Below are positions 14,201 through 64,000 of a stretch of DNA of 64,000 bases, one piece after another. The stretch is from Blasia pusilla (Eukaryota). Location of the stretch: NCBI GenBank assembly GCA_050084515.1, contig CM114271.1, positions 26,846,001 through 26,910,000 on the forward strand. The letters are read 5' to 3'. The notes under the pieces are model-generated. The model did no database searches. It saw nothing but the letters and a program-made list of their open reading frames with translations, and was not told the DNA's origin. Position numbers and translations under genes: made by a program. The first letter of the stretch is position 1. Each line of letters starts with the position of its first letter.

Positions 14201-14319
14201 ATTCTTGACTGAAAATAAAAATAAAAATAAAAATTCAAACCTATATTTATTTATTATTTTTTCTCGCATATTCGCAGTCGTCCCTCTTACACCCGTGCAT
14301 CGCATGGGCATCTTCCTAG
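11267..14319 (+). mobile_element. Helitron relic: intron-containing Rep/PIF1-helicase pseudogene with intact 3' terminus
   Basis: DNGWVVLYNP..CHINME..KY..KGYD (Rep C-terminal part); PGGTGKTFLY (Walker A); IWDETPM; PFGGKLIIFGG; LTTNMRV; PSGLPPHCLRLKIGAPIMLLRN; QFPIRPTFAMTINK; FSHGQLYVALSR. GT-AG introns (e.g. ~12922-13034, ~13602-13707). 3' hairpin cccgtgc-atc-gcatggg followed by CTAG|T at 14316-14320. Confidence 0.92.
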
Positions 14320-14789
14320 TTTATTATTATAACTCATATCATTGTTTTCTCCTTCACATTCAATGCTTAACACCTATCACATTAATGATAAGAATCTTTT
14401 GTCGCTTAACCACAAATATTACATGGGTGTTTTTTAATTGAGGAAAGGCAATACCAAAATTAAATTATTGTTCCATCTACATAAACTATTTTCTTATAAT
14501 TAGTAATAAAAATAAATGAGTGTGTAGAAAAAGTTGAATTAGAGAAAAAAAAAAACAAAATCTTAGTATACCTTTTATGAAGGGCAACTTGAGAACAACT
14601 CACTTACTTATGGAACTATAATCTACATTTGTAGATAATATTTGACATCCAATTGCGGAAGGGAAGTAGGATGAGACGAATAAACTCGTTCAATTGGAAA
14701 TATGTTGGACTTGCGTCGCCATCACGTACATTGTTTTGGCCGCCACCGTCATCAACCAGTGATGGCATATGACCTTATGTTATAGTGTT

Positions 14790-28650: not shown

Positions 28651-29813
28651 TTTGGTGAAATGAAGTGGATTCGCTGTTGGTTTGAGTAAGTCTCGATACA
28701 GGAGGTAGTGGAGGTTCTTGTAAATCTTTCTGCTCTCAGCGGAAAGATCTGCCGCCTCTGCTTACGTGATGAGTTGTGTATGGGAGGCTGGAATTGTTGG
28801 ATTGATGATATCTCCTATGGGGCTCAGATGAAGACGCATCTTGGGGACTTCTCATGTATTCTTTTTCGGGATTTCGTGCATTCTGTGCTTCTTCGGTTCT
28901 GTTCATGACACTTGTCAACTACGGTGCGACGGAGGTGGATAAATTTTCCACGTTTTGAAGAATTCACTGGCTTGTTGGAGTTGATCACCATGTCCTGGTG
29001 AGGCTGGTGTTCACGAAACAGCACGATCGCGGGCAACACCGTGAGGGGGTGTTCACACGGCATGGAGCTGACATTTGTTGTTCCTCTCCTCTCTTGAGAT
29101 CAAACCACGCGAAGAATTCAGACGCACAGAAGCATTAGCGTCCTGGTAGATAAAGCATGTCAGGAGGTGTGTAGGGGGGTTATTGGAGTTGTACAAGTAC
29201 GGCTACGACCGAAGTGCAGCCGTTTTGAGGGTCTTCTCGCTCGGAGCGGAAGAAAAGCTGGTATTAATCCCCCGCTTTGGTCTTCAGTAATGTAAGGTAG
29301 AACGCCATTCGTGATCCTTGCATCTAAAAGTGATATCCCCTGGGACTTGCCCTATCTTGAGTCTGAAATATCCTGCACTTCCCGATCGCTCTTGCCTTTC
29401 TTGGTGTTTGTTTGTGCAGTATCGCTGTCAACGGTGTTTGTTTTGGGAGTTACTCAATTCTATTTGCATTTCAATCCGCCGCTGACAACGGACTTTGTGG
29501 TCTGGATACTTTTTGACTGGTAATGCCCAGCCAGATACGTGTTATAGTGGAAAGCGGGATACTTTTCTCGATCAAATCACGAGCTGTATCTACCGATGGT
29601 CAGCACGTCTTCGAGTACTAGAAGTCATGGAAGCCGATTTTTCCACATGTGATCATGAATGATGGACACGCAGATGGCCAATGATGTGGTAAACGGCGGA
29701 GAGAGAAACTGTCAGTAGCGCGCTCCTATCTCAGAAGGCATTTTGTGTTGGACTCGCAATTACATAAGTTGCATATTCTTCAGGTCTCGGTGATATGTGA
29801 AACGAGCAGGAGA

Positions 29814-32800: not shown

Positions 32801-33019
32801 TGATAGCTGGCAGTGGCCCTACTTTCAATCTTTATGCCACATTTATGGTATACAGGGCTTAGACTGCCCATTACCTTGTTTTGCTAAGGAGGTTGGATCT
32901 CTTTCCTTGTTGTGAATAGCCTTGTCGATGGTGTGGGAGGATCAGCACCAATGACTTCTGAGGGTGTGCTGGGACACAATGCTGCTCAGCAGGTGGTGGG
33001 AATTTTGAACAATGGTTAG
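29814..33019 (+). CDS. WOX13: WUSCHEL-related homeobox protein, WOX13 (ancient/T1) clade. Predicted exons 29814-30093, 31012-31581, 32494-32692, 32920-33019
   Basis: WOX13-type N-terminal motif [28 protein letters not shown]. Homeodomain [61 protein letters not shown] junctions keep frame (phases 1,1,2). Last exon less certain; unspliced stop at 32694-32696. Confidence 0.9.
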
Positions 33020-33552
33020 TGAACCAATGTCCTTCTGTTGCCTCTGTATACTTGATGATCTTCATAAGCCAGTACTTCCTTATGTGGTTAAAGATGTGGG
33101 GGCTATTGACTGTGCTGGGGTTTCTTTCTAAGCAGTCTGTGTGTGGATGTGTGTACAGGCCTGGCAAATGGTACAATACTACGGTCTCAAACACAGAGCT
33201 AGATGGGAACCCGCTTCAGTTTTGGTAAACACAACGGACAAAAGTCTAGCATCCAGTATACAAAAGAAGTCAATTCTCTTCTAATACACAAGCGTGCCCC
33301 TTATATCATTATGTCATCAGTGGCGGCATCCTGGGAAGGGTCCATGCAAACTACCCATTTTGTTCGAAGTTTTTTCCAGGGTTTTGGGGAATCTATCACC
33401 CTCCAGTATAAGGATAGCCTTTCAGCATTGGGAGTTCTCATGAAATCTCTGATGCAGGCAAGGAGGGCTTGTAACGTATACCCACAAGTGGCTGTTGTCA
33501 ATATAGGAAATGTCAGGTTTTATTCATTGCAAAGCAGTGGGCCTATGTGTTA

Positions 33553-36429: not shown

Positions 36430-38676
36430 CTAAACATTTGAAATTGGGGCTCTTGGAGAATCCTCTACATTTGCAACTTCCAATGGAGCATCATTCTTAC
36501 CTTTCACATATTTCTCTGGATTAGAATACACATATCTAAAGTTAACAGAATTTTTCCAAAGAATTACTGATTCTATCAACAAATCCTCGTAATCCAGTAT
36601 CTTACCCTCTAAAGCTATCCTGAGAACAACATCTAAATGCTTAGTCGTCAATCGATTACGACTTTTTGTTTTGATCAAATTCTGCACAGAGAAAGCTCTC
36701 TCACAAATTGCAGTACTCACACATTGTACTCTAACAATGTTAGCTAATACAAGCAAATTAGAGAACTTACATTGCAGAGATGGGCTCCAACTTACCATTG
36801 CCCACAAATCTCGAAAGTTTCTATCTTTCCATTCTGTGGTGGCCATGAGCTTAAAAGATTGAAACTCAGACTTCACACTTGCTGAATTCACAAGAGGTGG
36901 TTGCAAGTGACCCCTACAAGGCATTTCCCTTCCAAAATGTGCGCAAAGATCATCCACTTCCTTGCAACCCCAACTATTCAACCCTACTAACCTCGAGGGC
37001 ATATGAAGAGGATTCAGAATTTTCATTGCATCTATCAAACTATTATCCCTAAATCTATCATGTAAGGCTACACATACATTCTCAACAAAGTTCTTCTGGA
37101 AAGTTAGAGCAACCTGTAAATCCCTTCCCGTACGATCTCTCGACATTTCTATGCTATGGAACTTTCTTCCCTAATCTCAGATTCAAATCGTTTGGTATCC
37201 ATCGGGAGGTCCAAAATCAGGTAAGAGATGATAACTGTTTCTTGAGAGAATGTAGAAGCATTCAAGTCATGATTCTCCATTACAAAGTTCATTGTAATAG
37301 AGGCTATCTCAGAATTCACAATACTACCAATAGTACTAACATCTACAAATTTGTATTGGAAAACCTTACTCAAATTAGCAAGGATAAACAATATGTCTGC
37401 CAAAAAGTACAATTGATAGATCATTTCAAATGATCGAGCTTGTTGTACATGTTAGTAGCATTACCATCATCTTTGAGCGGGAATGTCCCTGAAATAGGTG
37501 AGAACAGATTCCAGGGAGTCGCACAAAGTAGTCACGGCTTGCCATCGAGACAACCAACGAATTTTATGATATCTCCTCATGACCTTCTGAGAGTCATTCA
37601 ACTTCTCTTGCAAAGTTGCAAGAGCACACTTCCTCTTTGAGGACCTTCTAAAGTATCCACTCTGAATTCAAGATGGAATCAATCTCTATAGATACATCTT
37701 TACAACCTGGTCCTTTGGTTTTGTCAAAGAAGCAAGATTGGTCCTATGTGCAACACAATGTACAGAGAGCAAAAATGGGTTCGCTTTCAACTTCAACTGA
37801 GATGCTACTCCATTCGACTACCTACCATAGTTGAGGCTCCAAAATCGATCCAAAAGCCAGCATCTTTGAACTCTCTAGTCCCGAGTCCTTGATCAACTCC
37901 AAAAGATTGTTAGTAATGGCATTTGAACACTTCTTTGGACATTGCAACAATCCTAAGAACTAATTCTCAACCTGCCCTTCTAACAAGTAAGTTACAAACA
38001 CAACGAGATGGCCCGTTACTGAAATATCAATGGACTCGTCAATCATGATCCCAAAGAAAGGAGATTGTTGAACTTTTAAAAGCGTCCTTCTATGCACTAC
38101 CTGACTGATATAATAACACATATCAGCACAAGTCTTCTCATCTTGGTATAAATATCGGGTAATTGGTGCATTCACTGAAAGTAACAACTTACACAAATTC
38201 GGGAATTTCGCAAAAGCCAATGATTCCTTGACGATGAAGTATGCACACTTGAACAATGTTAACAAGGCTTCGTCACAAGTCCGATTAGTAGTGGCAATGG
38301 CCTTGGCCATCGACCTGTGTCCTATATTAGCAGCCCAAGAAAGTTTCATATGCTCAATCGATTTGCCATGATCTGTAAAGGCTGAAACCTTACAATTTAT
38401 GGCACCATCCCTTGCAAAGGAATTCTTACCCTTTCCTTGTTTACAAACCTTACAAAATATTCTACCAGATTCTGCATGAAACTCTATCCAGTCAAATAAA
38501 CTATACCAGACATCCTTCCAAGCCAGTTGATTCTTCTCAACTAGACTACTGGAAAGAGTACCAGAATTCCCATTTTCCCTCCCATCCGAGGACCCTGACC
38601 GGCTTGAGTTCTCAGTAAAGTCTTGGCTTACGTCTTTGGCCAACATTTCGCTCATGGTTCGCTGTCTCTTAGCCAT
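36430..38676 (-). pseudogene. hAT transposase (ZNF862-like), frameshifted
   Basis: N-terminal Zn finger (IFCKVC..H...H); FFGIMIDESIDIS; a CVAH-type motif near 37750; hATC dimerisation STAICERAFSVQNLIKTKSRNRL. Split over several ORFs. Confidence 0.88.
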
Positions 38677-38957
38677 ATCTCAGACAATGAAGGGTTACCA
38701 AAGGTTTAGGTCTAAACAAGGCCTCGTCTTCTAGACAAGAGCAAAACTGGTTCACATCAAAAGAAAGGTGGCAGCCAAGAGTCAAAGACTCAGAGCAAAA
38801 GGCCGAAGTGAGGAAACCCAAGACTCGGACCTAAATCACTTTATGTTGCCAAACCCGAGAGCAAAGCTGAACCCGAATCAAGATAAAGAACGTTAAATAG
38901 GGCCTCTGACTCGCCAGGGTGCCAAACCCGAGTGCAAAGCAGACCCCGAATCCTAAG

Positions 38958-41799: not shown

Positions 41800-44700
41800 T
41801 ATAAACTACTTGATGGAACAATCCCCATAGAGGTTTGTGTTGCAGAAAAGTGCAAAACAAGTATAATTGATGGGATACGGGTCTCAAACATACATACCAC
41901 CATGAAGAACAAAATTTTGCAATTAGAAAATGAATGGAGAGTAATCTCCTTCTCAATTATATAAGATATGTACAAGCAATCCTAACCCTAATCCTAACCA
42001 TAGTCTCAAATTATACTAACTATGGCTAACTAACCTTATTTAAGATAATCGTGCTTAACTAACTAATCAAGATTAAGTTTTCCTACTTCGTGTAAGTACC
42101 AAATATAGTAGTTCGTGTGTCTAATAAGCTTAACGATAACTGAGTCTTTAAAACTCTCCCTCAAGCTTATATCGATATCTCTAAGACCTAAATGGTTTCT
42201 AAACATCTCAAACTTATCTTTAAGCAATGTTTTTGTAAAGAAATGATAAATTTGTTTATATATATATATATAAAAGATCAATTTCTCCTGCAAACACTTT
42301 TTCTCTAATAAAGTGGCAATGCACCTCAACATATTTTTTTCGAGCTCTGATCTCTCCTCCTCCTAAGGCCACAAAAGCCTATTGCCTTATGGGCATGTTC
42401 CAAAATCATGGAGATCCGTTGTAGACAATAAAGCACTGGAGTAGCTAAAGCTAAACCCATTTCTAGAGAGAAGATTTGAGATCCTTTAGGAATGAGCGAA
42501 ATGTCTTCCTATAATCCCGTCCATCTTCATGGTTAGGAGAAAATTGCAATTGTAGGTTGCTTTTTTTAAGCCTAACTTATAATTGTGCTTTCGAAGGTGA
42601 AAGAATAACCACATGTAGAATGTCTATATAACATGTTTCCTACCCAATATTGATGTATCTCTGAATCCTTGTAATTGTAAACTCGGAGATGGTTCAAATT
42701 GGAGCCCAAACGAAACAAGGAATTTCATATATCTCATAATCTTTCTCAAAGCATCAAGATGTGGTTTTCGATAAGTTTCCATGAACAAGCTCACTATACT
42801 AACTGGGTAGCTCAAGTCCAGCCTAGTTATAGTTAGATAGATCAAACTTCCAACCATGCATCCGTACATATTAGAATCTGCAAGCAACTCTCATTCATCC
42901 ACTTTTAACTTGTCGTGCGTATACATATCGCTACACAACATACATCGCTCGTCACATCTACACCACACAACACCGATCTTCCCCACACACGGGTCGATCT
43001 ACACATGTACAAAAATCAACTCATACATATACATGAAGATCACACAACAATAAAGAATAGTAAAAATGGCACAACCTGGCTAAAACTCCACTCCTCAATC
43101 TACATCGGCATATCGAGCCTCGTCCACCCTGTGCTATCAAGGAATCCGGACGCTAGCACCCTAGTCCTAGCTCACACACATACAAGGGAGGTGCTCCAAC
43201 GGCCCAACATGAGAAAGATGGCTTAGGAAAGCCATCTTCCTCTCTTATATAGGTTGGGAAGAGCCAAAAGGCTCTTCCCCTAAGAATAGCCCTTCCCTTG
43301 GTAACCTACGAGCACAGGTTACCAGGGGCAGGTGACCTGGTCAACAAGTCACTCGGCTGTAAAAGACCTTAATATGAAAGTCGTCAGAAACGACGTTCTT
43401 GACACAATGGACCTATCCTCAACCTCATCCGACACTGTGGGACAAAGTTACACTCAAGATAGTTCGCTGGCTCCTACGCCCTATCCACGATAGATCTCGG
43501 CCTATCGGCTACTCAGATGTGACAAACTTCATACTTTACTCCAACAACGTAGAGATTGGCTTACAAGCCGTGATACCATATTTTTAATGTATATGAAGAG
43601 CATATTGTCGTTGTAATAACAACATGCTCTCTCCAACCGTAATAAACTCAACACCAAGAAAGTACTTGAGTTCTCATAAGTCCTTCATATCAAATTTTGA
43701 TTGTAGCTTTAGCATGACATGTTGTAATATATCCTCAATACTCCCAATAATCAAGAGGTTGTCAATATACACCATAAGGATAATCGTATGGCCTTCTCCT
43801 CTCAAGACATATGGCGAGGAATCAAAATCACAAACCTTAAAGTCAAGCTCCTAGAGGACATATGTAATCTTGCCATACCAAGCTCTTGGAACTTGCTTAA
43901 GCAAGTATAAAGCTTTCTTTAACCTACATATCTGGAATGGAAACTTATAATGCTTGTATCCAGGTGGTTGAGCCAAGTATATCTCCTTATGCAAATTTCT
44001 ATTCTAGAAGGCATTCTTAATGTCCATGTTAGATAGTCTTCACTTCTTACTTACTGCAACCATGTTCTCATAATGCTCATCTTTCGAACAAGGCTAAATA
44101 TCTTCTCATAATTGATGTCATATTGTTGTGTATAGCCCTTGGCTACCAATGTTTTTTTGCATCTATTCACTATACCATCTTGATTGCAAGTCTATATGCA
44201 ACCAATAGCTTACTTACTAAAAGATATATCAACCAACTCCCAAGTTTATTGATATCTTAACGCGCCAAACTCTTCCTACATACCTTCAATCTGTTCGACC
44301 TTACATGCTTCTTCTTCAAAACAACTCTATTCCTATTCTTGAAGAGCAATCATCATACATGCATCATGTATTGCAAAGAATCCTTCATTTATGAATCTAT
44401 GAAAAGGATGTGTGACTCTACTTGATCTATGAAGTTGATGTTCAAAGATTGAAGCCTTTGACATCTTACTTGACTTTTGACTAGTGTGAATAGATTGAGA
44501 CGTACTCTTCCCGACCATATATTGATAGATTTAACTAATAGTCTAGGACCTCTCTTAACCTTGCACTAGTACTTGGAGAATTTATAGACAATATATGTTG
44601 GTTTATAGTCATATCTCCCCCTCAACACACAAGTTTAGAGGTGGTATAGGCTCAAATGGAACATATCATGAATTCAACTGATAAAAAATAACACCCCGAC

Positions 44701-45510: not shown

Positions 45511-48500
45511 TGCGTATTGTCATGACCATACGGATTATGTCGTAGAGTATAGTGTGCTAGTAGAGGCCATACCTTATGTAGGGCCGTAGTGTCTAGGTAG
45601 AGGTGCGATTTCATAGATAGGGTTGGGGGTTACTTCATTGACAGTGAATTTTCCAGTAGGGCCCGCTCTTAGGTTGGAGGATATAGTATGGAGTGTACTC
45701 AAAGAACAATTAGTTCTTTGAGTTGAGCGTGTTGCGTTGGGAGTTAGCCTTGGTAGTGAGTAGAGCTCTTGGCTATGGTGGTTCCCACAAGCTTTGACGT
45801 GGATTCTCCCATCGTGGAGTGAGTTTAGCTCGATTTTATGTGATTCTATACGTGTTTTATGACAGTAGGTCTTTCACGGATTTCACTCAAAGAAATGGAG
45901 TAGATTGATGGTAGCTTCGATCGTGGATCAGTAGGATCTGGTTAGGGCTGATTGTGTACTCAACCATGAATGTTCTTGGCTTGTGGCTTATGTTAGAGGG
46001 GTGAATTTGGTTCGTGGTTGGTTGGGAAAGAATTGCCTTGCTGAGAGCTTTCCAACGCGCTTTAGATCTCCGGATTTCGTCAAGGGAGTTGGAAGTTATC
46101 AAGGATTGAAGATTCTGGTTCGTGTTTGACGGTTTTCTGATGTGGAGAGCTTGGAGTGCGGAAGCTCTGTTGAAGTTCATCCAGATTGGGTGAGAGGTTC
46201 TTGTTGCTACCTGTATTTTGATCTCATGTGAAGCTATCTGCTTGAGTGTGTGGAGCATTTTGGATTTCTGTGTGCATGAATCTGGGCGGAAGCGCTGTCG
46301 GATTTGCGATGTTGGAGGTGTATAAACAACAAGTTTGTCTGAGTTTTAGCTCGGAGTAAAGAGCTTGGTTGTAGCTGATTTTTCGTGGAGAGATAGCTAT
46401 GGTGGCCAATTGAATTCTGGTCAAAACAGATTCAATTTTGGTTGAGGATTTGTGGAGTAATTGCTGATCAAAATTTTGTAGACTAGCTCAAGGTCTCGCT
46501 ATGGTGGACAACAGATCTGAGGGGCTGGCTGGTTGGTTGGTGACTCGTCCATTGTACCCGATTGGGTGCGCCTTGGTTGGGCTTCTCTCCATAGCAAAGC
46601 ATGGTGAAGCGTGGCGAACGGGGCATGTCTCGGCGTTTTGAGGCTTCGAGGCAACTCGTGGTAGCTCGGGGCGGAGTAAGGAGCAAGGAGCAAGCAAGCA
46701 AGCTTGCTTGCTTGGGCGTGAGGCAGTTTTTGCAGGATTTGTGAGTTGAGTGTTGCATAACGGGTCACCCATATTTGGGCTATTCTGCTTGGAAGACGCT
46801 TGACTGCTGAGTTCTTAACTATGCTAGTGTATACATTGGTGTAGCTCATTTGGTGCTATTTGGAGATGTGTTAGGCGCTTTATGCATCTCGGGTTTCCGG
46901 TTGATGGACCTCTAGCGCAAAGTACGGTGTGGTCTCTCCATGCAGGTGATATTTACATGTGCTGCGAGTGCGACTAGCACGTCATCGACCAACGGCGGAG
47001 TAGCTATTGCGTTAGAATTGTGTGGTGGGTTCTGTGGATTCAGGGGGTGCCACGTTTGGTGGATTGTTTTACCTTGATTTCCATTAGCGATTGGAGGGTT
47101 GTCATTGGACTTCCTGTGTTTGGATCCCCTCCATCGTTGCTTCTTGCTTGCGCGCCCATTGTTAGGATTGATGCTCATTTCCAGAGTAGTGTTACTCCTG
47201 TGTGCTACCGGTAGTGAGGCTGGAGTGATGAGGAGTAGATCGTGGGAGGCTTCTTGTGGTGATGATAGGTTAGGTTGCCCATACCCATAGCTAGTAGATC
47301 TAGAATAGTACAGCGACATCGACATCACTTGGTTACTTAGTGGTGGTGCCGCATTGGCGTTGATCATCATGGAGCTGTCTGGTGGTCTGGTTGGGGACCG
47401 TGGTGTGGACAATGATGGTTTTACACAGAGTGGATTGAAGTATCGGCTACCTTTCCCACTTCCGACGGTTAATGAGGAGGAGGACGAGGGTGTTCCAAAC
47501 ACCGAGTCTTCTACGTTGTTATCGAGTGTTGCAACTCCATTGATTTGGGACATGGACGGGATATATGGGGCCATGAAGGGCCCACGATAATACTCGGGTG
47601 CACTGGGCACCATTGAGTTGGAGGACTTCAATTAGGAGTTTGATACGTGGTGTGATATGCAGATGTTGCGGAATGCCACGTTGTTTACACCCTTCTTGGC
47701 TTGGAAGGGGTCTATCATCCATGGTGGTATTGGTAGTAGTGCTCCTACTATGCCAGCCAGCCCGACGTTGAGTGGTACAAGTACAAGCCGGAGTGGAGGT
47801 ACCCATGGAGGTACCAGTGGGGGTACTAGTGGAGGTACTAGTGCCCCACCATTGCTAAGCCCGGTTGTAGAGTTCTTCAAGAGGTTGAAGAAGAACTATC
47901 AGGGAGTGAAGACAGAGAAGTTGAGGAGTCTTCACGAATTTGAGCGAAAGACTGGTGAGAGTCTTCGTGAGGCATACACTTGTATGCGACGCTTGATTTC
48001 AATTATCCAAGGTGTGATTGAGGCTCACGCAGTCCACTCTTGGTATGGGATCTTGGACAGAGAGTTGCGCCGCAGGGTACGTGATGCTACTCTTATGAGT
48101 GATGATTCAGCCACATTGGGCCTTGTGTTTGCTATATCTGAGAAGATTGAGCTTAACATGGTGGAGGAGAGAGTGGTGACATCCGCTTTCAGTAGGATAC
48201 AACAACTACTTCTTGTGTTCAGCAGTCCACCTCACAATCTCGTAGTAGTGATGGTGGTAGTAGTAGTGGGAGTCGTGGGGGGTACACACGACCTCAGTGA
48301 GGTCCTAGAGGGACACTTGCGCAGAGACCATTGCCTTCATTTGCTGCCCTGCAGCAAGGACAGTCATGTTGGACATCTGGAGGTGATAATGTCAAGAGGT
48401 TTTGTGCCCAAGAGGATGGAAGACGGACTTTGGAGGATGGGCCTCAGTCAACCCCAACTCATTGTGATCATTGTGGGAGACCAAGTCATCCTTGAGAGCG

Positions 48501-50099
48501 TTACTTTGATCTTCATCCAGAGTTGAGATTAGGCCGTGGCCGTGGTGGAGAAGCTCCGAGAGGCCGAGGTGTTACAGGTGGTAGAGGTGGACCAGCGGTT
48601 GGAGAGCCTACGGTCGTACCACTACAATAGACTCAACTAAGGCTGCCAGGACTGAGCAGTTGAAGCAGAGGTTGGCTACTATGGCTAGTATCCAACATAG
48701 AGCAGGTTTGGGAGGAGGGGCAACCACCTCTTATGGAGGAGATGATCTCTCTTATATGGTGAGTGCAAAACAAGTTGGGGCATCAACTGCAATTATGAGA
48801 GGAGCCAGTCGAGCGTCAGAGCCACGTGGTGCTACTGTGGAGTTGGACCCACATAGGGGTGAGGCTGGGAGGCAGGCTAGGCTCCCCCAGTCATTCTTGT
48901 TGTCTGAGGTGCGTAGGACTCCATCCATGGTTCCTACGTAGCCTATTGAGCCGACAGTGGGGACTGAGGCATCTACATCGCGTGTAGTAGACACGGATGC
49001 AACATCCAGTGCAATATTGCGGATGGCAACTTTAGTGTTGGGATCCCCATTGTTTTCAACCACGGAGCTGATGGCTTTAGGAGTTGACTTAGCTCATGTA
49101 TTTCAGCTAGCAACCACGTTGTGTAAACCTAGGGGTGTTACTGCTACACGTGCTGAGGTGGATGAGGGTGTTGGGATGGAGCGACCCTCTATGTCAGGTG
49201 TAGCATTGAATACCAGTGCTACTTGGCAAGCAACAACGGCGAAGATGGATGCATTACCAGCCCGGCCAGCCATTGATCGTGAGAGGCTTACACCTGATGT
49301 ATGTATGTTGGACAACCGAAGTGGAATATTCCGATTGGTGAGTCCTACAGGACAGGTGTATAGACCAGATAGAGTCTTGTTAGACTGGAGTGCACAACCT
49401 TTGATGTTGGGAAAGGCGACATATATTGGTTTGGGTAATTGGAGGTTAGAGCTTGAGCCTTGCCCATTCTAGATTCAAACATCACTTGGAGGAGCCAATG
49501 ATAGGTCTCAATTTATGATACGGGAGAAGTTTTCTGTACAGTTGAGACCAGATCATGCGACATATAGCTCCCGGTTGGGAGTACGTGCAGTGGTCACATC
49601 AGCCGAGTCGTATGATGTACTAGTTGGAGGAGCAGTATTGTACCCGATGGGTTTTCATATGGACTACTGGACTAAGACAACGTCTTATAGACCTGTTTGG
49701 CAGTTCGGGGATGGACGTATGAGCCAGGTTCCTATGAGATTTATTTATGGGGCTCGACCAGGAGGGTCTTCCCCAACGGTGTTAGCATCTGTGGCTGGTT
49801 TTTGTGGAGTAGTCACTTGGCCAGGAGACTTTTTGGAGGGTTATGTTTCTGCTATGGATTCTCCTGTGCATGAGGAGGTCCCTAGTTTTGCAACAGTGGT
49901 ATCCTCATCGTTGGATGTGCCACTTTGGAGTTCAGGCGGTGCACTATGGGAGGAGGCTGATCGCCTGGTGCAAGAGGCTTGGTGTGAGGCTGTTATACCT
50001 CACGAGGAAGAGGAAGCTCCACGACGGACTCCTACTTCTAGTCCAGTTGGGTAATCCTCTTTGGATACTACACCCAGTATATGGCAGTATCTTCCGGAG

Positions 50100-51050
50100 G
50101 GCATTTGTGTGTTAGATCTCTTTGGTGGGATTAGCACTCGTTTGGATGCAGTGTTACAGGCCGATATTCCTATACGGAGATACGTGTATGTGGAGCGAGA
50201 TGAGACGGCCCGGAGAGTCTCATCCCGACATATTGGTCAATTGATGCGGAGATATCTTGAGTTGTTGCCACCATCAGCTATTCGTGGGTACCACCGTGCT
50301 TTACCGTCACACATTGCATTGTTGGGGACGTAGGACCTTGAGAGGGTTGGTCCTGTGGATTTGGTGATTGCTCGATGGCCATGTCAGGGTCATACACGAG
50401 CTGGTCGTGGTGAGGGATTACACGACCCTCGGTCTCGATTGTTTTGGGAGATGTTATGGGTGTTACGACATCTTCAGATTCATCACGCACGTGCTCTAGC
50501 TTACATTATGGAGAATGTTCCATTGTTGGGTGACATTCAAACTCGGATGATGGCGAGTGTTCATGAGGTGCGGTCTTGGATTCGACCAGCGGTGTTGTTG
50601 GATGCAGCGCGAGTTGGCTTGCATGCACATCGTCAACGCTTGTGGTGGACAAACTTGTTGCCTAGGGAGGTTCTACATCGAGCATATGATGCAGTGCAGC
50701 GGGATCCTTGCCTTACAATGGATACTATCTTGGATACGGGGCGACTTTCTCAAGTGGTGAGGGTTATTGATGGGTCACCCATGGTAGTGGTGAACTATGT
50801 GGGCCAGCCTAGGATGGTAGTACCCACATTTGTGAGTTTTCCCTCGTCACATGCCTACAGGGAAGGTGGTCCCGGGCTTGTATGGGATTCTCATGTGCGA
50901 CAGTTGGTAGAGCCTAACGTTGATGAGAGAGAGAGCGTGCGATGGGATTTGCTATTGGTCTGACAGCGGTTGCTTCCATTTTTGAGGCTTCACGACGTCA
51001 TGTGTTGGATCAGGCCATGGACCTGAATTGTTTGACCTGGATTTTGAGTC
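50100..51050 (+). pseudogene. DNMT3-like C5 cytosine methyltransferase domain inside retroelement copy 2
   Basis: GICVLDLFGGI (I); YVYVE (II); DLVIARWPCQGH (IV, catalytic PC kept); LFWEML; YIMENV (VI); AHRQRLWWTNLL (VIII); EPNVDERE/MGFAIGLT..RRHVLDQAMD (IX/X). Confidence 0.9.
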
Positions 51051-54000
51051 TTGGTATGGGCAAGCAACGTCGACTTCGGACTATGTCTGTGGGTCTTCCA
51101 CCCCTTGTGATGAGCTCGATGGCTACCGGGACGGTAGAGACATCGGTTGGGGGCGAGGAGAATAGTATTTTGCATCCTTGGAGTAAATAGGATGTAATGG
51201 CTGGGCATGTGGAGTTGGTTGCTCATGCTGGTGGAGGAGTTATTTGCTTAGATGATAGTGTAGCTAAGGATGTACCATCTTGTGAGGGGGTTGCATAGCA
51301 TCCAATGGCGTCATCCTCTCCCTCTAGTGTGCCAGTGGAGGAGACTTGGGAGCCATTACTTTGGCCCAAGCTTACGGGAGGTGAGAGACGACGCTTGACA
51401 CAGTTCCTACGTGCTTATAGGAGTTGTTTTTCCTTTAGCATGAAGGAGTTGGGTGCTCTGGTTGGACCCGATATACGGATTGATTTGGCTAGTGATATGC
51501 CAATCTTTCGTCGTCCCTACCGATATAGTGATATGGAGAGGGACCTAATTCAGAGTAGGACGTTGGACCTTTTGGAGGCTGGATTAGTGGAGTTGTTGCA
51601 TGGAGAGTATGCATCAGCCACTATCATGCATGCTAAAAAGGATGTGCATGGCAACTACACGGATAGGCGGATGTGTGGAGATTATCGTCATATCAATCGG
51701 TAGACCAAGGCCGATAGGTATGCCTACACATGAGGAGATCTTTGGTATGGTGGGACAGGCAATGATTTTCAGTACTTTGGATCTTCCGGCATGATACCAT
51801 CAGTTGACGATTCGAGAGAGTGACAAGGCCAAGACAACATTTTGGGGTGTCAACTCTCATGGCAAGGATTGTTTGTACCAGTGGAAATTCTTACCCTTTG
51901 GGTTGAAGAATGCACCTACCGAGTTTCAGAGAGTGATGGATAGGATCCTAGCAGGGTTGGATTTGTTTGGTGTTACATTGATGATATCTTGGTGTTCAGT
52001 AACACGATGGAGGAGCATCAGATACATTTGCAGATTGAGCGGTTGAAAGCTCATGGTCTACGTTTGCATCCAGGAAAGTGTAAGTTCTTCCATAAGGATG
52101 TTGAGTACTTGGATCATGTGATCTATACAGGTGGGTTGGGAGTTCAACAAGCAAAGGTGGAGGCTATTGCATTTATTCCTCGTCCGGTAGATGTGAGTAG
52201 AGTTCGGGCATTCATGGGATTGGCGAACTACTATCGGAGGTATGTGAAAGGATTTAGTGCTATGGCAAAGCCTTTGAACCAATTGCTGAAATCCGATCAT
52301 GAGTGGCGTTGGGGAGATGATCAGGAGAGAGCTTTTGTGGAGCTCAAGGCCTAGTTGGTGGTGGCGCCTATCTTGAGGAGACCTATCAGAGGGCGCCCAT
52401 TTCAGTTACACACTGATTGGAGTAGGTTGGGACTTGGAGCGGTGTTGACACAACATGATGATGAGCACATGGAGTTTGTGGTGGCCTATGCAAGTCGTTC
52501 AAATAATGCAGCAGAGTCGCGCTATAGTCCATATGAGGGAGAGTGCTTGGTAGTAGTGTGGGCTGTGGCACACTTTAGGTGTTACTTGTTTGGCACACAG
52601 TTTACCCTTGTTACTAATCACCAACCGCTCAAGTGGTTGATGAGTCTGACAAGCTTACAAGGAAGCTTGCACGGCGGGCTCTTATCTTAGAAGAGTATGA
52701 CTTCCAGGTGGTACATAGACGTGGAGTTGCCAACCTTGATGCTGATGGGTTGAGTAGGAACCCATGTACTAGCCAAGAGGATGCAACTGGGGCTAGATGG
52801 CATGGCGAGGTTGATGAGGAGATGGTGCCAGGTTGGCATGCATCCACCTTTTTATGTTGGTTAGGGGTGGACTCTAGTATGGAGTCCACCCCTAACATGA
52901 CATCTTATTCTAGTCAGAGGGTAGATGGCTAGCCTTCAGATCCGAAGGTTGGAGATGGTGGTACGGATTAGCGTGATATTCATGATGATGCGTTGGTGTT
53001 GGAGTTCCTACGGACCACTAGGGTGCCACGCATAGTGAGTGCCAAGGAGCGAGACTGTGTTCTTCAACTTGCTAAGAGGTATCGATTGGAGGGAACACAT
53101 ATTCTCCGTGTGTGGGAGGATGGTAGAGTACGAGTAGTGCCGCATTTGGCTCAGAGAGAGCGCATTGTGCGACATGCCCATGAGGAGTTGGGACATTTTG
53201 GGGTAAAGTGTACGTATAGCTTACACCTTCGTCAGTATTGGTGGCGTGGCATGCATACTCAGGTGCAGAAATTGGTGTCACATTATATGGTTTGTGATTG
53301 GGTGAGGGCATCATTCAATGCCCCTACACCACAGTTACACCCCTTGCCTATTATGGGGTTGGGTTATCGTTGGAGTGTGGACTTTGAGGGACCGTTATCG
53401 TTGAGTGTACGACATCATCGATATGTGTTGATGATGGTGGAGCACTTCTCCAAGTGGATTGAGTTGGTGGCATTACCTGACAAGGCAAGTGAGGGAACGG
53501 CGTATGCGTTTCTTGATAGAGTGCTTAGTCATTTTGGTGCACCAGATGAGGTGCTGACGGACCAGGGCACAAAGTTTCAGGGTGAGTTTCAGGTCTTGTG
53601 TGACAAGGCGTTGATTGATCATCGGACCACGTCTCGAGATCATCCAGAGGCGGATGGTTTGGTTGAGCGTGTGGTTCAGACGGTGAAGAGGGCATTGCGC
53701 AAATATGACATACAGAAGAGGCATCTTGGAGACTAGGATATTCAGTTGCCATGGTTAGCCATGGGGTATAGGTTCAGTTGCCAAGGATTCTTGGCTTCCT
53801 TCTCACCTTATTTTCTGTTATACGGCCTAGATCCAGACTTGCCAATAGCAATTTTTCGGGAGTCTAGTGAGGTGGTGAACCTTGATGACCCAGAGATGTG
53901 GATGAGAGTGTGTTCTCAGCGGGCAAAGCTCTTTCGGAGAGTTATGCCAACAGCCTTTGAGAACCTTGCCATTGCTCAACATAGGGATACGTTGCCGTAT

Positions 54001-54276
54001 GCAACCATTCGGGGTGGAGGTTATCGACCATCGATTTGTAGGTTCCATGTGGGGGACTTTTTCTATTTGCAGTAGATTGCATCGACAACGTTGGATCTGA
54101 CGGCATGCCGCACTGTTTTACGAGTGCGCGAGGTGTTAGCTTCTGGAGTTCTCATGTTGGAGGGTCGTGATGGAGTTGTTTGGAAGGACCATGTGCGTAA
54201 TTGTGCGCCATGTCATCTTCCAAATGTGGATGGTACTGTTGACCCAAGCTTAGCCATGATACGTGCTAGCTTGAGG

Positions 54277-54418
54277 TGCATGTTGTGTGGGTCTCACCGG
54301 TAACGGCCGTATGTTGTTGGTGTGTGATCGGTGTTCTACGGGTTGGCACATGATGTGTTTGACTCCACGTATGGATGTTGTTTGTATTGGAAGGTGGGTT
54401 TGTCCTCGATGTACTTAG
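54277..54418 (+). pseudogene. PHD finger at the integrase C-terminus
   Basis: CMLCG then, after a frameshift, MLLVCDRCSTGWHMMCLTPRMDVVCIGRWVCPRCT*, a C4HC3 pattern with the typical W.CP.C end. Confidence 0.85.
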
Positions 54419-55168
54419 GAGAGGTAGATGACTTGATCTTTGCGTGATATGGATTGCAGATACGCGACTAACGATGGGGCAACCTAGCACCCGACCTTCT
54501 GATTCGTGCACCCAAGAAGGTGTATAGCATGTAGTAGATGTATAGGGCTACCTGGGAGTTAAAGGGACCTAACCACCAGTTTGGGGGGCGAGTTGTGGTA
54601 CACTTGTGTTTGTGTATTCTCTCGTCTATGTTATGTATGTATGTGAGTATGGTATGTCAACGTATATGTATGGATGTGGATTCACGCACATTTGTATCAT
54701 GACCATACGGATTATGTCGTAGAGTATAGTGTGCTAGTAGAGGCCATACCTTATGTAGGGCCGTTGTGTCTAGGTAGAGATGCTGTTTCATACATAGGAT
54801 TGGGGGTTACTCAGTTGAGGGTGACTTTTCCAGTAGGGCCCGCTCTTAGGTTGGAGGATATAGTATGGAGTGCACTCAAAGAACAATTAGTTCTTTGAGT
54901 TGAGCGTGTTGCGTTGGGAGTTAGCCTTGGTAGTGAGTAGAGCTCTTGGCTATGGTGGTTCCCGCAAGCTTCGACATGGATTCTCCCATCGTGGAGTGGG
55001 TTTGGCTCGATTGTATGTGATTCTATACGTGTTTTATGACAGTAGGTCTTTCACGGATCTCAATTGTGGTACACTTGTGCTTGTGTATGCTCTCGTCTAT
55101 GTTATGTATGTATGTGAGTATGATATGTCAACGATGTATGTTGTATGACGATGTGGATTCATACGACA

Positions 55169-56269
55169 ATGGAGTCAGTTGACAATGGAGTCATGCTCTT
55201 GGACTAGAGACTTGATATCTTTGGATACCACACCTGTTGTGTAGCAATGTCTAGAGGAGGATGTGAGAGTGTTAGATGTCTTTGGAGGGATCAACACGGT
55301 GGGTAGCTTAAATATTGCAAGATAACATCCGGATACGTTGATATCTCTAGGTGGAGATAGATGAGATGGATCCGAGGAAGAGTATATGTTGGTAGATGTT
55401 GCGGAGATAATGGCATCGACGATGCTAGATGTGCTTAGAATAGTAGATTATGTTAGGTATATGTGATGTTTACTATTAGGAGTTAGGGGCATCCAACTAC
55501 CAGCTAGGAGGGTGGTTGTGTGGTCTCGATAGATATGTGTGAGTATATTTTGCTTATTAGTGGATCGGCCCGTGTGTTGGGAAGATCGGTGTTGTGTGGT
55601 TTGTAGATGTGATCAATGATGTGGATTGTGTAGCGATGTGAATGTGCACAACAAGTGTCTCATCTTAGTTAGCTTAGAGATAGAGTTCTACGACGTCGAC
55701 GATGTAGAGGGCCAACGAGAAGTTTGGCTATAACTTTGTCTCGAGATGTCAGACAAGGTTGACGAGTGGTCTCTTGTGTCGGGAATGTTATTTATGGCAA
55801 TTTCCCTTTTTTTGCTATTTTTGGCCTGATGACCCGTTAATCGAGTTACATGGTCATGTAGTAACCTATGCTGGTAGGTTGCGGTTTGGAGGCTATTTTT
55901 GGGGGAAAGAGCCAAAAGGCTCTTCCCAAGGCTATAAGAGAGGGAGCGATAGCATTTCCAAGCCATCTTTCTCATGTTGGGCCTTAGAAGCACCTCTCTT
56001 GCTTGTATACATAGGAACTAGGGTACTACTGTCTGGATTCCCTCATAGCAGAGGGTGGATGTGGCTCAATATGTTATGTAGATTCAAGAGTGGAGTTTCA
56101 GGTCATGTGAGCCATTTTTATTCTGATTTTGTTGTGTGGTCTCAATGTATATGTGTGAGTATATTTTTTTTATGAGTGGTTTGACCCGCGTGTTGGAAAG
56201 ATCGGTGTTGTATGATGTGTAGATCTGACTAGCGTTGTGGATTGTATAGCGATGTGTATGCGCACGAAA
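55169..56269 (+). mobile_element. Internally deleted third member of the MTase-Gypsy group with B1-A2-B2 3' end
   Basis: SLDTTPVV*QCLEEDVRVLDVFGGINT (MTase motif I) at ~55220-55300; a short post-integrase-like fragment at ~55400; PPT-like ctaccagctaggagggtggt; B1 55517-55653, A2 55656-~56130, B2 56133-56269. Confidence 0.78.
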
Positions 56270-56289
56270 CACACATCGCTATACAAACC

Positions 56290-57470
56290 AAACTACCAAA
56301 GTGAAATCAATCACTATATGCACAAAAAAAATTACAAAGTTAATTCGTAATTCCTTCAACTTACCAAACTAGGAAGGGAAGTAAGTCACTACACATGGGA
56401 GAAATTGAAAGGGCACTTACACCATAAAAGGAAATTCATACTTACCAATTGGTTACACTTAAGTGAAAGTGGTTTATTGTAAATCATGACATAATTTTAG
56501 TTTCTAAGGAATTTTAATTGGTTAACTTGCCTCAAAACACCATAATAGATTGAAGGTCAATTATCTAATTGATGTGTAAGAGAAATTGAAGGAAGGAAAG
56601 GGTAGTCAATTGTCAAAGAGAAAATGAAAGAAAGAAATTATACAAATCACGTTTTTTTGCATTTTCACTCATCAACGTAATCAATACTAGTTTTCATGTT
56701 ATCATATCAAATTTTCCTATTGGTCTTGAGCAACTTGTTGTCCTTTATAACCAAAGACCGTCTTTCTTCTTGGCAATTTGAAATTGATCTATGCCATCCA
56801 AAATGCATGTCAACACCTTCAAATTACTTATCATGTTGCAAAAATCCTTCATAGGCATTATTGTAAATCTCAAGCCCTACTTGTGAGGGTCCCTAAAGCC
56901 AAATGTGTTACTACTAGAATGCCCACCTGAAAGATTGATAAAATATGAGGCAGGTAAAAGCATCCCAACGCAACTTCTCCAAAATCCAAATAAGCATTGG
57001 TGATTGGATATAAAACTTATTTTTACTATTAAGGTAGCAAGTTTCTTTTTCGAATGGAAACTCACTTACCAAAGGAAGTAAAGACTACTAAAAATAAAAA
57101 GGATATGTAATAAGGCACTAGAAGGGATTGAGGATTCCTTGCGGCTCCATTGCTAGTCCATCATAAGTCGACTTTTGCCAGTCTAATGTCTATGTGTGTG
57201 TCTCCTCGCAACTTTGCAAGTCCGGATAGTCTTTTTGCCATTGTGACCATAGTGACTTGCAAATGAACGTGTGAGTTAGACTTGTGATTTGTGACTTGCA
57301 TTCGAGTCGTACGAGACTCGTGAGTCATGAGTCCCGTGACTCAGAACTTATGAGTCATTTGTGAGTCTTGAAACTCCTAAATTGATGTTTGTGAGTCCTA
57401 GAACTAAAATATGGGCCATGAGTTTCCCTTTAGCCTCCAAATCGCTTCATTTTCTCTTTTCCTCCTAACT
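56290..57470 (-). mobile_element. Probable 5'/gag part of the Copia relic
   Basis: Degenerate gag-like minus-strand translation in the same orientation as 41800-45510. No intact ORF. Confidence 0.45.
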
Positions 57471-57478
57471 TTGCGAGA

Positions 57479-58103
57479 TATCACACCTTAGTAACTGATA
57501 GGTAGAGATCTATCGTGGCGGAGATATAGAGAGCCAGTGGATTGTATTTAGTGTAACTTCGTCTCGAGGTGTCGGATGAGGTTGAGGATAGGTCTGTTGT
57601 GTCAGGAACGTCATTTTTAACGACTTTCCTATTTGGGTCTTTCACAACCGGATGACTTGTTGAGCAAGTCACCCGCGCTCGGTAACCTATACGCGTAGGT
57701 TACCAAGAGGATTGCTATTTTTAGGGAAGATGTGGGAAGAGCCTTTTGGCTCTTCCCACATCTATATAAGGGAGAGAGATGGCTTTCCCAAACCATCTTT
57801 TTCATGTTGGGCGGTTGGAACACTTCTCTTGTTCGTGTATGAGATAGGACCAAGGTGCTAAGGTCCGAATTACCTGATAGTAGAGGGTGGACGAGGCTCA
57901 ATATGTCGATGTAAATTCAGGAGTGGAATTTTAGGAGGAATGTGCCATTTTTACTCTTATTTTTATTGTGGGGTCTTGATGTATATGCATGAATTTGTTT
58001 GGTTTATGAATGGATGGACATGTGTGTTGGGAAGATCGGTGTTGTGTGGTGTGTAGATGTGACCAACGATGTGGGTTATATAGCGATGTGTATGCGCACG
58101 ACG
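57479..58103 (+). mobile_element. Solo terminal-repeat unit (A+B, 625 bp) with 4-bp TSD
   Basis: Termini T(A)TCACA...GCACGAC(G); GAGA on both sides (57475-57478, 58104-58107). Collinear with 55656-56269. Confidence 0.83.
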
Positions 58104-61050: not shown

Positions 61051-64000
61051 ATGTCTCTTGGATCGAGAAAACTTGTGGTGAGAGGAACTCATTGCGTTTC
61101 ATACTTGATTAAATTGAAGAGCCAGACGTCCTTTAAGCGCGAGATGTGAATTTAATTCCTTATTTCTCTTTTTCCATCCCCTCAGTTCGGTTGGTCCGGG
61201 CGTGGCCTTCAACTACGCACGAGTATCTGATTTTGCAGGTGGGTGTCGTGGTTGTGCAAGGTGCTGGGTATACCATGGGACGTAGACACAGAAGGACTAC
61301 GGCAGTACATGTCGAAGTATGGAGAGCTCGATGATATAATTGTCATGAAGGTATGTTTGATCTTTTACGTGTTTACTGGACATGCTGCTTTGATAAATGA
61401 TGGACTTGCCAGAGTGCCTCATATGCTTCAATTCAAGTTTTGTCTCGTTGATTGAATTTGGGCTTGTAATGGCCTGCAAATGTCCTTTTGCCCACCTCAG
61501 TCTTTGTTTTGTTTTCATGAGGGGGCTTTCACAGAAGTAAAAATGCGCTTACAGTCTTGAAGTTTTGAATGACTTTGGAACTGTTGTCACCGCCAAGAGT
61601 ATGATGCAGCTGTTATTCTTTGAGGCTGTAATCTAATGATTTTTCGCTTTGCATTGTTTATCCAGGACCGAGCTACAGGCCGTTCTCGGGGATTTGGATA
61701 TGTCACCTTCAGGTCAAGTGAAGATGCAGAGGTGTGAGCTCGAGGATTTTTCATCATTAGTTATGGCTTAGTCACAACTCCGGAGTGACCCTATATAATA
61801 TGCTTACTTGGATCCTTGTCACGCAGAAAGCTGTTGCAACACAGCACTCCCTTAATGGACGAATGCTAGAAGTGAAGGTGGCAACGCCCAAGGTCTGGAT
61901 CTCTTACTTAATTGCCTTTTTTTGAATTAAAATTTTTAAGCAGAGAATCAAAAGGTAACTTGTTACCAGAGGTCTTTTTGAATATTTAAAATCTCATGAT
62001 GTACTAGTTGAACTTAGTACGTGAATGGTGTAAATTAGTGGGATTCTGGTGTTCTGATATAAGCTTGTGCTTATTGTCTTTCAGGAAGATATGAAACCAC
62101 CAACAAAAAAAATCACTCGTGTGTTTGTGGCCAGGATTCCTCCCAGTGTTTCTGATGATATGTTTCGCAGGTAGTATGCTACTTCATGTTAAGATCTTGT
62201 TGTCTCCATCATTCTCGAAATGCTTATTGTTCAGAAACGAGCAAACCATTCCGAAAGGGATGCAATCACTCAAGCTGTCAAGTGTCACGTACAGTGTGGT
62301 GAGCAGTGCTGTCTTGCATGGTGTGTGTGGATTCAATCCTACTTTGGATCGTGTAGGCATCTCAGGGCCCCTCATTGCTCAATATGTTCACATCTTCTCT
62401 TGCTTTGTTCTCTAGCTATTTCGAGAAGTATGGAACACTCATTGATGCGTACATGCCTAAGGTAAGCTTCAAACTTGTCCCATACCTCAACGATACAGAA
62501 AGTTGGCATTTGATGAAGTTAAATAGATGTGTAAGTTTTTAATCTTTCTTACCACTTCTTTACCATAATGGGAAGTTGGTGAAAAGAAATTGCCGATGAT
62601 AGGGTCCTCTTGATGATATCAGGATCAGATCACAAAGGCTCACAGGGGCATTGGATTTGTCACCTACGAGCACCCAGGTATGAATTATCTTGTAGAGATC
62701 GGGCTGTATGTAGTTATTAGAAGGTCCAAGCATTTATCAAACATCAATTGAAGTTGCATGTTGTGAAGTCATTCAGTTCATTAACCTGTGAAATGGTTAC
62801 AGGGACATAGCCGGTCGCATAATTTAAAGCAAATCTTGTCATTCTCTCACATCTTATTCCTTCGGATTTATGGGGCACCACGCCCTAAATGAGAGTTACC
62901 CTCTGAGTGTTGGAGGACCATAAAGTGGACACTACTTTTTCATACTTAATTAGCCCTGAACCTGTGAAATGGGAACAGGGACACAGCTGGTCACATAATT
63001 TTAAAGGGGATCTTGTCATTTTCTCAAATCTTATTCCTTGGGATTTATGGGACACCCTAAATGAGACCTACCCTCTTAGTGCTAGAGGACCATAAAGTGG
63101 ACTATTTTTTTGTACTTCATTAGTCCTGAAGCAACTGATCTCAAGACTTCTTGAAAAGTTCACAAGATCTCACCAATTCATCCTACAGAATCGGTGGACA
63201 AGCTTATGAGTGAATCTCATGAACTTGCGGGTTCTACAATTGCTGTGGATCGAGCGACACCAAAGGTGAAATATGTTTTGAAGGTTTCCTAAGGCTGATT
63301 GTAGCCTTTCTAATTCGTTTTCTTTTGCCATCCCCTGATTGATGATGGTTCCTTTCTAGTGTTTTGACTTTGGAATAATTCACTTGTGGGGTTGAATGGA
63401 GGACAAGTAATTATTTGCTGGGTGCCTTGCATCATTTTCTATTGAAATAATATATCTCTTTTGGACATTTGACTCAACATCATTGGCATCCACCAAAATT
63501 CTCATTGCATGGCATCTCAAGTAATGTGAGTTGCTTTATGGAGCAATAGCCGAGTGAAGGGTCGTATCTCCCTTTACCGGATGGGAAGACTTACTGAAGT
63601 CATTCCAACTAATTACTTGCAGGAGGAAACTGCCAAACCATGGGGGAAAGCATTTCAAAATCCTTATGGTGCATATGGTGTCTACACCAACGCTGCCGCT
63701 AGATTTGGAGCATTTGGTGGAGCATTCTTTCCTGGGTACGACTATTCGGGAGCAGGCCTTGGGACTGACTTAGGTGGAGCAGGTATGCAGAACCCATTTG
63801 GTGCAAATGCTTGGCCTCCACCACCGGCGCCTGGTATGATGGCACCAACCATGGGTGTACCAGGGGGCAGTCCCGGTCCTAACTACTCTACACCTGCTGC
63901 TCCTGCCCAGTCGGTAGCACCATCGAAAGGACTAGGTACCCGGATTTTTGTGGGACGACTTCCGCCAGAAGCCACAGCTGAGGACTTGCGACGCTACTTC
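61051..64000 (+). CDS. Multi-RRM RNA-binding protein (hnRNP A/Musashi-like; resembles Arabidopsis AT4G36960 from memory), runs off the window. Exons 61051-61077, 61261-61350, 61666-61731, 61827-61892, 62085-62170, 62416-62461, 62623-62677, 63189-63265, 63623->64000
   Basis: Spliced translation: MSLGSRKLVVLGIPWDVDTEGLRQYMSKYGELDDIIVMKDRATGRSRGFGYVTF...EVKVATPK..RVFVARIP..HRGIGFVTY..IAVDRATPK..RIFVGRLP. RNP motifs of three RRMs (the third cut by the window end). All junctions GT-AG and in frame. Confidence 0.93.
62783..63130. repeat. ~176-bp tandem duplication in an intron of the RRM gene
   Basis: aacctgtgaaatgg..acagggaca.agc.ggtc.cataattt...gaggaccataaagtggac repeated at ~62783 and ~62959. 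Confidence 0.88.

Follow-up and report, generated by a model that had tools for sequence, protein, structure and literature searches.

A B-A-B terminus in Blasia pusilla, its Ty3/Gypsy relatives and a proposed integration route through a junction inside the LTR

What kind of retrotransposon ends in one repeat, continues with a second and then returns to the first? This question is raised by a locus at positions 55169-56269 of a 64,000-nucleotide stretch of Blasia pusilla DNA, hereafter the window (GCA_050084515.1, contig CM114271.1), where the remnant of a C5 DNA-methyltransferase (MTase) is followed by repeats in the order B1-A2-B2. The original prediction, made from the letters alone, held that this is the 3′ end of a second subfamily beside a longer element, copy 2 (45518-55168), and that the split-repeat structure is a conserved property of the lineage and linked to the methyltransferase. 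Several questions follow. Are the repeats real? Do relatives of the element have the same layout? How could such an element be copied and inserted?

The repeat order has been met before. PAT, Ngaro, VIPER and TATE elements have split direct repeats, with A1 at the 5′ end and B1-A2-B2 at the 3′ end (PMC6681497). In the alga Klebsormidium nitens, KnitGypsy-Dnmt3 combines Gypsy domains with repeats arranged as in a DIRS element (de Mendoza et al., 2018; PMC5890265, Fig. 4c legend), the order A-coding-B-A-B being spelled out in the legend of Fig. 1e of the same paper, and a preprint names such elements streptophyte Gypsy-DNMT3 (10.64898/2026.05.21.726589). Because the layout has already been published for KnitGypsy-Dnmt3, the element kind is known; the name KnitGypsy occurs in only one of the papers searched. 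The layout itself is thus not new; it is the anatomy of the junctions that points to an unusual route of integration.

Anatomy of the locus and its surroundings

The features discussed here are collected in Table 1. The window is rich in transposon remains. Besides Gypsy elements it holds hAT transposase remains (36430-38680, minus strand; PF05699 and PF25431) and, by eye, a Helitron-type helicase end (13500-14330) and a decayed non-LTR RT-like piece (22100-23550). A host homeobox gene, presumably WOX13-like, lies at 29780-33200 on the plus strand (PF00046 at 30993-31589), a putative host RNA-binding (RRM-like) gene was noted by eye at 61240-64000, and two long stop-free frames of 210 and 350 amino acids at 465-2150 (plus strand) have no Pfam match.

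Table 1. Features of copy 2, of the B-A-B locus and of the solo A-B units (window coordinates)
Feature	Position	Strand	Remark
Solo A-B unit	42911-43524	-	ends TGTC...GACA; AGTT/AGTT duplication
Copy 2 A1, left end TGTC...	45518-45885	+	94.5% to A2
Copy 2 primer-binding-like site	45885-45894	+	complementary to 45714-45723 within A1
Copy 2 body: gag, protease, DNMT, RT, RNase H, integrase, PHD	47309-54413	+	many stops and frameshifts
Copy 2 DNMT	about 50058-51050	+	PF00145 at 50334-50960
Copy 2 integrase open frame	52972-53736	+	rve, D-35-E
Copy 2 B1	54593-54690	+	behind polypurine tract
Copy 2 A2	54695-55062	+	from repeat comparison
Copy 2 B2	55064-55168	+	no target duplication (GTAT vs ATGG)
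Joint, B2 of copy 2/MTase remnant	55169-55193	+	from sequence
C5 DNA-methyltransferase remnant (motif I and next strand)	55212-55386	+	stops and frameshift
Pre-B tract, including polypurine tract	55479-55514	+	homologous to copy 2 tract
B1	55515-55653	+	3′ end CACAACA; proposed outer U3 part
B/A junction spacer AG, 2 nt	55654-55655	+	proposed integrase site
A2	55656-56130	+	5′ TGTC; TATA-like motif at 55933
B2, right end of element	56131-56269	+	end GCACGAAA; C at 56268 in family reads
Inverted copy of B 3′ end, about 20 nt	56270-56290	-	right flank
Solo A-B unit	57479-58103	+	GAGA/GAGA duplication; ends decayed

The three repeats lie within 2 nt of where they had been predicted, homology starting at 55515 and 56131. 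B1 and B2 align with 83% identity over 135 nt (BLAST, E 2.7e-33), and their local score of 155 is far above that of shuffled sequence (maximum 31; 0 of 300 shuffles equal it). The methyltransferase remnant proved genuine as well: positions 55213-55297 are 76% identical to window 18425-18509 and 72.5% identical to 50058-50137, and blastx carries the remnant to about 55386, with a best E of 1.9e-4 among the collected proteins. All other body parts, including the PR-RT-RH-INT domains, have been deleted, and the layout visible at the locus is B-A-B only. The pre-B tract resembles that of copy 2, as had been noticed, in 32 of 43 columns, a score reached by 1 of 300 shuffles against copy 2 and by none of 300 against the tract of L006. 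The claim that the repeats themselves are distinct was also borne out: BLAST finds no match between A and B of the locus and A and B of copy 2, which places them in separate families, and local scores between the two sets (20, 30 and 32) compare with shuffle maxima of 29, 28 and 31. We consider the locus very probably an internally deleted, dead 3′ end from a second family of a Ty3/Gypsy clade whose pol includes a DNMT3-like domain, whose DDE integrase carries a PHD finger and whose repeats follow the order A1-body-B1-A2-B2.

The locus has neither an A1 of its own nor a target duplication. It directly abuts B2 of copy 2, and since a duplication bounds neither piece, the locus has been rearranged. 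At the joint of copy 2 B2 with the remnant there is a 12-nt direct duplication (55166-55177 and 55182-55193) that resembles pieces of the B/A junction. The inverted B end to the right of the locus might have arisen as a templated insertion, or it might be what is left of a copy in the opposite orientation.

Two solo A-B units of the locus family are present in the window, 73% identical to the locus and 79% to each other. The one on the minus strand interrupts what appears, by eye, to be a decayed Copia-type RT (42500-44000, minus strand). No A or B unit of this family occurs among the best 80 of 491 metagenome loci, and a full-length body with such units was found neither in the window nor in those 80 loci. 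Another decayed clade member, at 16242-20064 on the plus strand, contains gag, protease, DNMT and the start of RT, where it is cut off; it shares 64-75% DNA identity with copy 2, its DNMT motif IV reads PY, not PC, and upstream of it there is no A of either window family.

DNA and RNA reads were taken from runs sharing one species label. The copy 2 family is abundant, with a depth of up to about 2000 in a 1966-Mb read sample, and is transcribed on one strand. The B-to-A joint is spanned by 337 DNA reads and by 73 and 110 RNA reads, in which the letters between B and A are mostly GCTG or GTTG. At the locus, DNA depth is about 160-180 on the MTase remnant and 8-18 behind it, and 31 DNA reads link a copy-2-like purine tract to a locus-family B end (54591 to 56242). 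The flank at 56298-56500 has zero depth, so the DNA run may represent another individual or strain.

Relatives and the spread of the layout

Metagenome loci were retrieved with an alignment of 49 relatives, and the counts that follow refer to the best 80 of 491 confirmed loci. B-A-B ends are found in 24 loci (18 distinct insertions) belonging to three families with unrelated repeats. In 19 others (16 distinct) the 3′ end is B alone, a number to be read with the reservation that short-read assembly could collapse B-A-B into B, and 37 of the 80 were left unclassed owing to a contig end, a cut or interrupted copy, or a family too distant for the probes. A1 is also visible in six of the B-A-B loci, which thus have the full order A-body-B-A-B. 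All six start with TGTC, end with RACA and are flanked by a 4-bp duplication, exact in four and with one mismatch in two; a 5-bp duplication was rejected, as it matches at no more than 2 of 5 positions in these loci. Four A-body-B loci have both ends, and their duplications match at 4/4, 3/4, 2/4 and 1/4 positions, only two of them being good. In L057, an f4 element of the clade has received an f3 insertion in the opposite orientation (1611-2093 and 12851-12997, both minus strand). Given B-A-B ends in three families besides those of the window, the 4-bp duplications and the reads with the B-to-A joint, the layout belongs to the lineage, as had been supposed, and it is published for Klebsormidium as well.

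In a tree of 44 integrase rows, the 39 rows of the group form one clade (99/99) against five other Gypsy integrases, and the copy 2 integrase stands beside family f1 (96/88). Named integrase relatives come from Calypogeia, Riccia, Sphagnum, Marchantia and Closterium, which makes a bryophyte host most likely; no sequence named K. nitens was among the homologue matches, and viral contigs gave no match to the element. Many 'hypothetical' C5-methyltransferase proteins of Marchantia (P0097, P0099, P0101-P0116) are polyproteins of the clade, and several Marchantia gene models thus appear to be such elements.

Is the layout tied to the methyltransferase? Most copies with a readable body carry DNMT, which precedes RT in copies of the bryophyte type; in L067, L073, L074 and L080 its place is between RNase H and integrase. 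In these four, and in P0030 and P0049, where DNMT likewise lies between RNase H and integrase, the integrase has a long C-terminal extension that belongs to no tested family. Among solved structures, the best matches of a Calypogeia homologue of the methyltransferase are DNMT3A/B (E 8e-11); DRM2 and bacterial enzymes rank lower. One relative, L075, has intact gag-PR and RT-RH-INT-PHD frames (best solved match Ty3 Gag-Pol, E 1e-78). It lacks DNMT, but the purine tract, the junction palindrome and an 11-nt self-complement are all present. L075 is a circular contig of 9171 nt with a 123-nt end overlap, either a young family in collapsed form or a genuine 1-LTR circle, and for this reason displays the signals and not the A-B-A-B order. 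In 6 of 10 distant loci, which are collapsed contigs counted without a shuffle control, the junction motif lies 59-192 nt past the last G-run. The junction signals thus go with the integrase-PHD clade and are present also in a relative lacking the methyltransferase. The predicted link to the methyltransferase holds for most bodies but not for L075, and the layout is only loosely tied to this domain.

Junction signals and a proposed integration route

The B1/A2 spacer is 2 nt long in all 18 distinct loci (best 80 of 491) and is always GC or a transition thereof (gc in 5, ac in 7, at in 4 and gt in 2). B/A is consequently a constant palindrome with a 2-nt spacer, ACA-gc-TGTC. The Blasia locus, with ACA-ag-TGTC, is off this pattern, and the B1/A2 joint of copy 2 is decayed. 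In every B-A-B locus of the same set a purine tract sits before B1. The A2/B2 joint, on the other hand, varies: in f3 (12 distinct loci) 2 nt are lost in six, 1 nt in one and none in three, and two have larger deletions, the joint types being found in both f3 subgroups of the alignment; in f1 there are one filler and, in L011 and L004, remnants of the purine tract.

B1 and B2 of the same copy are also related in a particular way. In f3 (10 loci), B2 is closer to its own B1 (0.075) than to other copies (0.107), which none of 20000 permutations reproduced; B2 follows its own B1 over the whole length, the first third already doing so (p 1e-4). In f1 (5 loci), B2 is again nearer its own B1 (p 0.034), the thirds singly being not significant (p 0.05, 0.20 and 0.25). 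Duplicates were left out of this test, as were L028 (cut), L059 (deletion) and L048 (single member). We infer that B2 was copied from its own B1; alternatively, gene conversion could have produced the likeness.

Just after A1, 8 of 11 distinct 5′ ends have 10-17 nt complementary to a segment within A, matched by at most 2 of 200 shuffles; L002, L037 and L050 lack it. In three f3 loci the self-complement lies 30-32 nt past TATAAA. The fold at this site is strong in L039 (z -5.5) and no better than shuffles in copy 2 (z -0.7). The predicted primer site of the locus family has five matches in the window, all within the three known A units and none after a 5′ A. In both window families (45697-45723 and the region of 55961-55973) a complement of the predicted RNA start lies ahead of it, forming a short DNA hairpin just past the TATA-like motif. 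In the two RNA sets, depth drops across A2 from 134 and 194 to 61 and 56, and 38 and 59 are left over the A/B joint; part of this drop may reflect poorer mapping; only 215 of 16154 DNA reads are 99% alike.

From these observations we infer where the RNA starts, how it is primed, where the DNA is cut and how its ends are joined. The RNA would start within A1, about 30 nt past the TATA box, cross B1 and end in A2, which the fall in RNA depth across A2 would fit. Its 5′ end would pair with the site just past A1 and prime reverse transcription in the fashion of Tf1. The plus strand would begin at the purine tract and, as this precedes B1, should start at B. Taken together, the tract and the self-complement after A1 imply that the LTR seen by reverse transcription would be B+A, and ordinary reverse transcription would yield a linear B0-gc-A1-body-B1-gc-A2. 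The integrase site of this molecule would be internal to the LTR, at the palindrome GACA-gc-TGTC, and not terminal.

A staggered cut after CA at such a palindrome gives processed ends of the kind used by retroviral-type integrase. Cutting both strands here would leave two CA-3′ ends with 2-nt overhangs, while the true ends of the cDNA (the end of A and the start of B) would be united by imprecise end-joining, before insertion (as a 2-LTR circle) or afterwards as repair; the data fit either. A variable A/B joint and a B2 that follows its own B1 would both be expected if end-joining had attached the left-hand B of the same cDNA as B2. Opening at B0/A1 would generate A1-body-B1-A2-B2 flanked by a 4-bp duplication; no other product would retain both a promoter and a downstream R. 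A-body-B would come from a 1-LTR circle or a double cut, and the 16 distinct B-alone ends (best 80 of 491 loci) are what 1-LTR circles would give; solo A-B could result from a double cut or from A-by-A recombination. Judged from the sequences, this mechanism as a whole (ordinary B+A LTRs, integrase cleavage within the LTR and end-joining of the cDNA ends) is probably correct. One of its predictions fails. Since the two sites of a free circle are equal, copies of the form A-B-A-body-B are expected, and none of 12 5′ ends has B before A (best 80 of 491 loci). Unless the left site is favoured, the repeats would be copied in a manner similar to that of PAT and Ngaro.

Such copying, which we regard as unlikely, would explain the missing A-B-A-body-B copies directly. 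The RNA would extend into B2, and RT would complete A1 from A2 and B2 from B1 and so provide the integrase with a linear A1...B2 that has 2 extra nt at each end; end-joining would be unneeded, and A-body-B would arise later by B-by-B recombination. The repeat order of Ngaro, PAT and VIPER (PMC6681497) and the RNA depth persisting over the A/B joint agree with it. However, a self-priming site after A1 would send the first strand to A2 and leave B2 uncopied, the A/B joint differs from copy to copy, and a separately inherited 5′ part of B2 is predicted, whereas B2 resembles its own B1 already in the first third.

Two further alternatives concern the locus itself. Its repeats could belong to the lineage and its MTase remnant to another broken element, the two adjoining by chance. 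We consider such a chimera improbable, as the remnant, the pre-B tract and B1 lie on one strand in the order of the lineage, DNMT-bearing copies have a homologous tract, and the 31 linking reads join a copy-2-like purine tract to a locus-family B end; in its favour are the position of the remnant directly after copy 2 B2, the lack of a target duplication around either piece, the failure to find a full-length element of this family and the uneven read depth. It is far less probable that B1-A2-B2 is a separate TRIM-like miniature LTR element with B as its LTR pair. B is a 139-nt direct repeat flanking 475 nt of non-coding sequence, with a start close to TG and an end close to CA, but bodies have A again at their 5′ ends, the purine tract is ahead of B1 and not of B2, and the duplications belong to A-B and A-body-B-A-B while B-A-B has none in its flanks. 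This reading was rejected because neither a target duplication of its own nor a purine tract before the 3′ LTR is seen, and ordinary paired LTRs of an unrelated element fare no better, the solo unit being A-B and not B. Integration of a circle at B/A by a tyrosine recombinase, its own or one from DIRS/PAT, is hardly credible: the layout is that of tyrosine-recombinase retroelements, but 4-bp duplications of unrelated sequence and TG...CA ends are marks of DDE enzymes, and no such recombinase family is present in the five long frames of copy 2, both frames of L075, P0020, P0030 or P0097.

Comparison with known systems and implications

The order PR-RT-RH-INT of standard Ty3/Gypsy elements is found in copy 2, the metagenome loci and L075. 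The DDE integrase, TG...CA ends and 4-bp duplication are likewise standard, being seen in all six full loci (best 80 of 491) and both solo units of the window, though not at copy 2 or the locus. In place of two collinear identical LTRs there is A1-body-B1-A2-B2 or A-body-B. In IS3- and IS30-family transposon circles, too, a DDE enzyme acts on abutted ends with a short spacer; these are DNA elements, in which the transposase makes the junction and there is no reverse transcription.

KnitGypsy-Dnmt3, compared by description, shares the Gypsy domains, the DNMT3-like domain in pol and the order A-body-B-A-B, seen here in copy 2 and six loci; it belongs to an alga, whereas the present elements are in a land plant and form several families. 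The available part of its account (PMC5890265) mentions no ends, target duplication, priming, mechanism or PHD. With PAT, Ngaro, VIPER and TATE the elements have in common the split-repeat order and solo A-B units (compare SIRE of VIPER; PMC6681497), but those elements use a tyrosine recombinase, in contrast to the DDE integrase, TG...CA ends and 4-bp duplications found here. Tf1/Sushi elements, the Tcn1 chromoviruses of plants and Tj1 are self-primed, the RNA 5′ end pairing after the 5′ repeat with no tRNA (PMC6317226, PMC4600332). These are Ty3/Gypsy elements like ours, of which 8 of 11 distinct 5′ ends have a self-priming-type site as far as sequence can tell; Tf1 and Tcn1 have paired LTRs and a chromodomain, the present clade split repeats and a PHD on the integrase. 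The integrases of foamy virus and HIV-1 are reported to cut palindromic 2-LTR circle junctions as a side path (PMC1180852, PMC4372172). The likeness lies in a retroviral-type integrase that cuts a junction with a CA...TG palindrome and so produces processed ends, which is what we propose here; the difference is that the viral palindrome comes from joining cDNA ends, whereas here it would be inherited within the LTR and required. The papers searched, which cover the literature only in part, describe no Gypsy element with an integrase site in its interior, and their silence weighs little.

Elements of this kind have so far been known from one alga, where, in the available part of the account, the repeats take up one sentence of a figure legend. 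The locus and its relatives reveal that several bryophyte families have retained the layout, with junction details that indicate how a DDE integrase could make use of it, and they show DNMT3-like cargo in retrotransposons of land plants. Programs that recognize LTR elements by paired terminal repeats would presumably miss the clade despite its abundance. In a broader formulation, an old Gypsy clade of the green lineage may have moved its integrase site to a palindrome inherited within the LTR, every productive insertion passing through an end-joined junction of the 2-LTR-circle type, a proposition we hold to be about as likely as not. Whether LTR circles are true precursors of integration is an old question of retrovirology, and it becomes testable with this clade. 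If the proposed route is true, a 2-LTR-type form deemed a dead end or side path in retroviruses would be the required route for an LTR retrotransposon.
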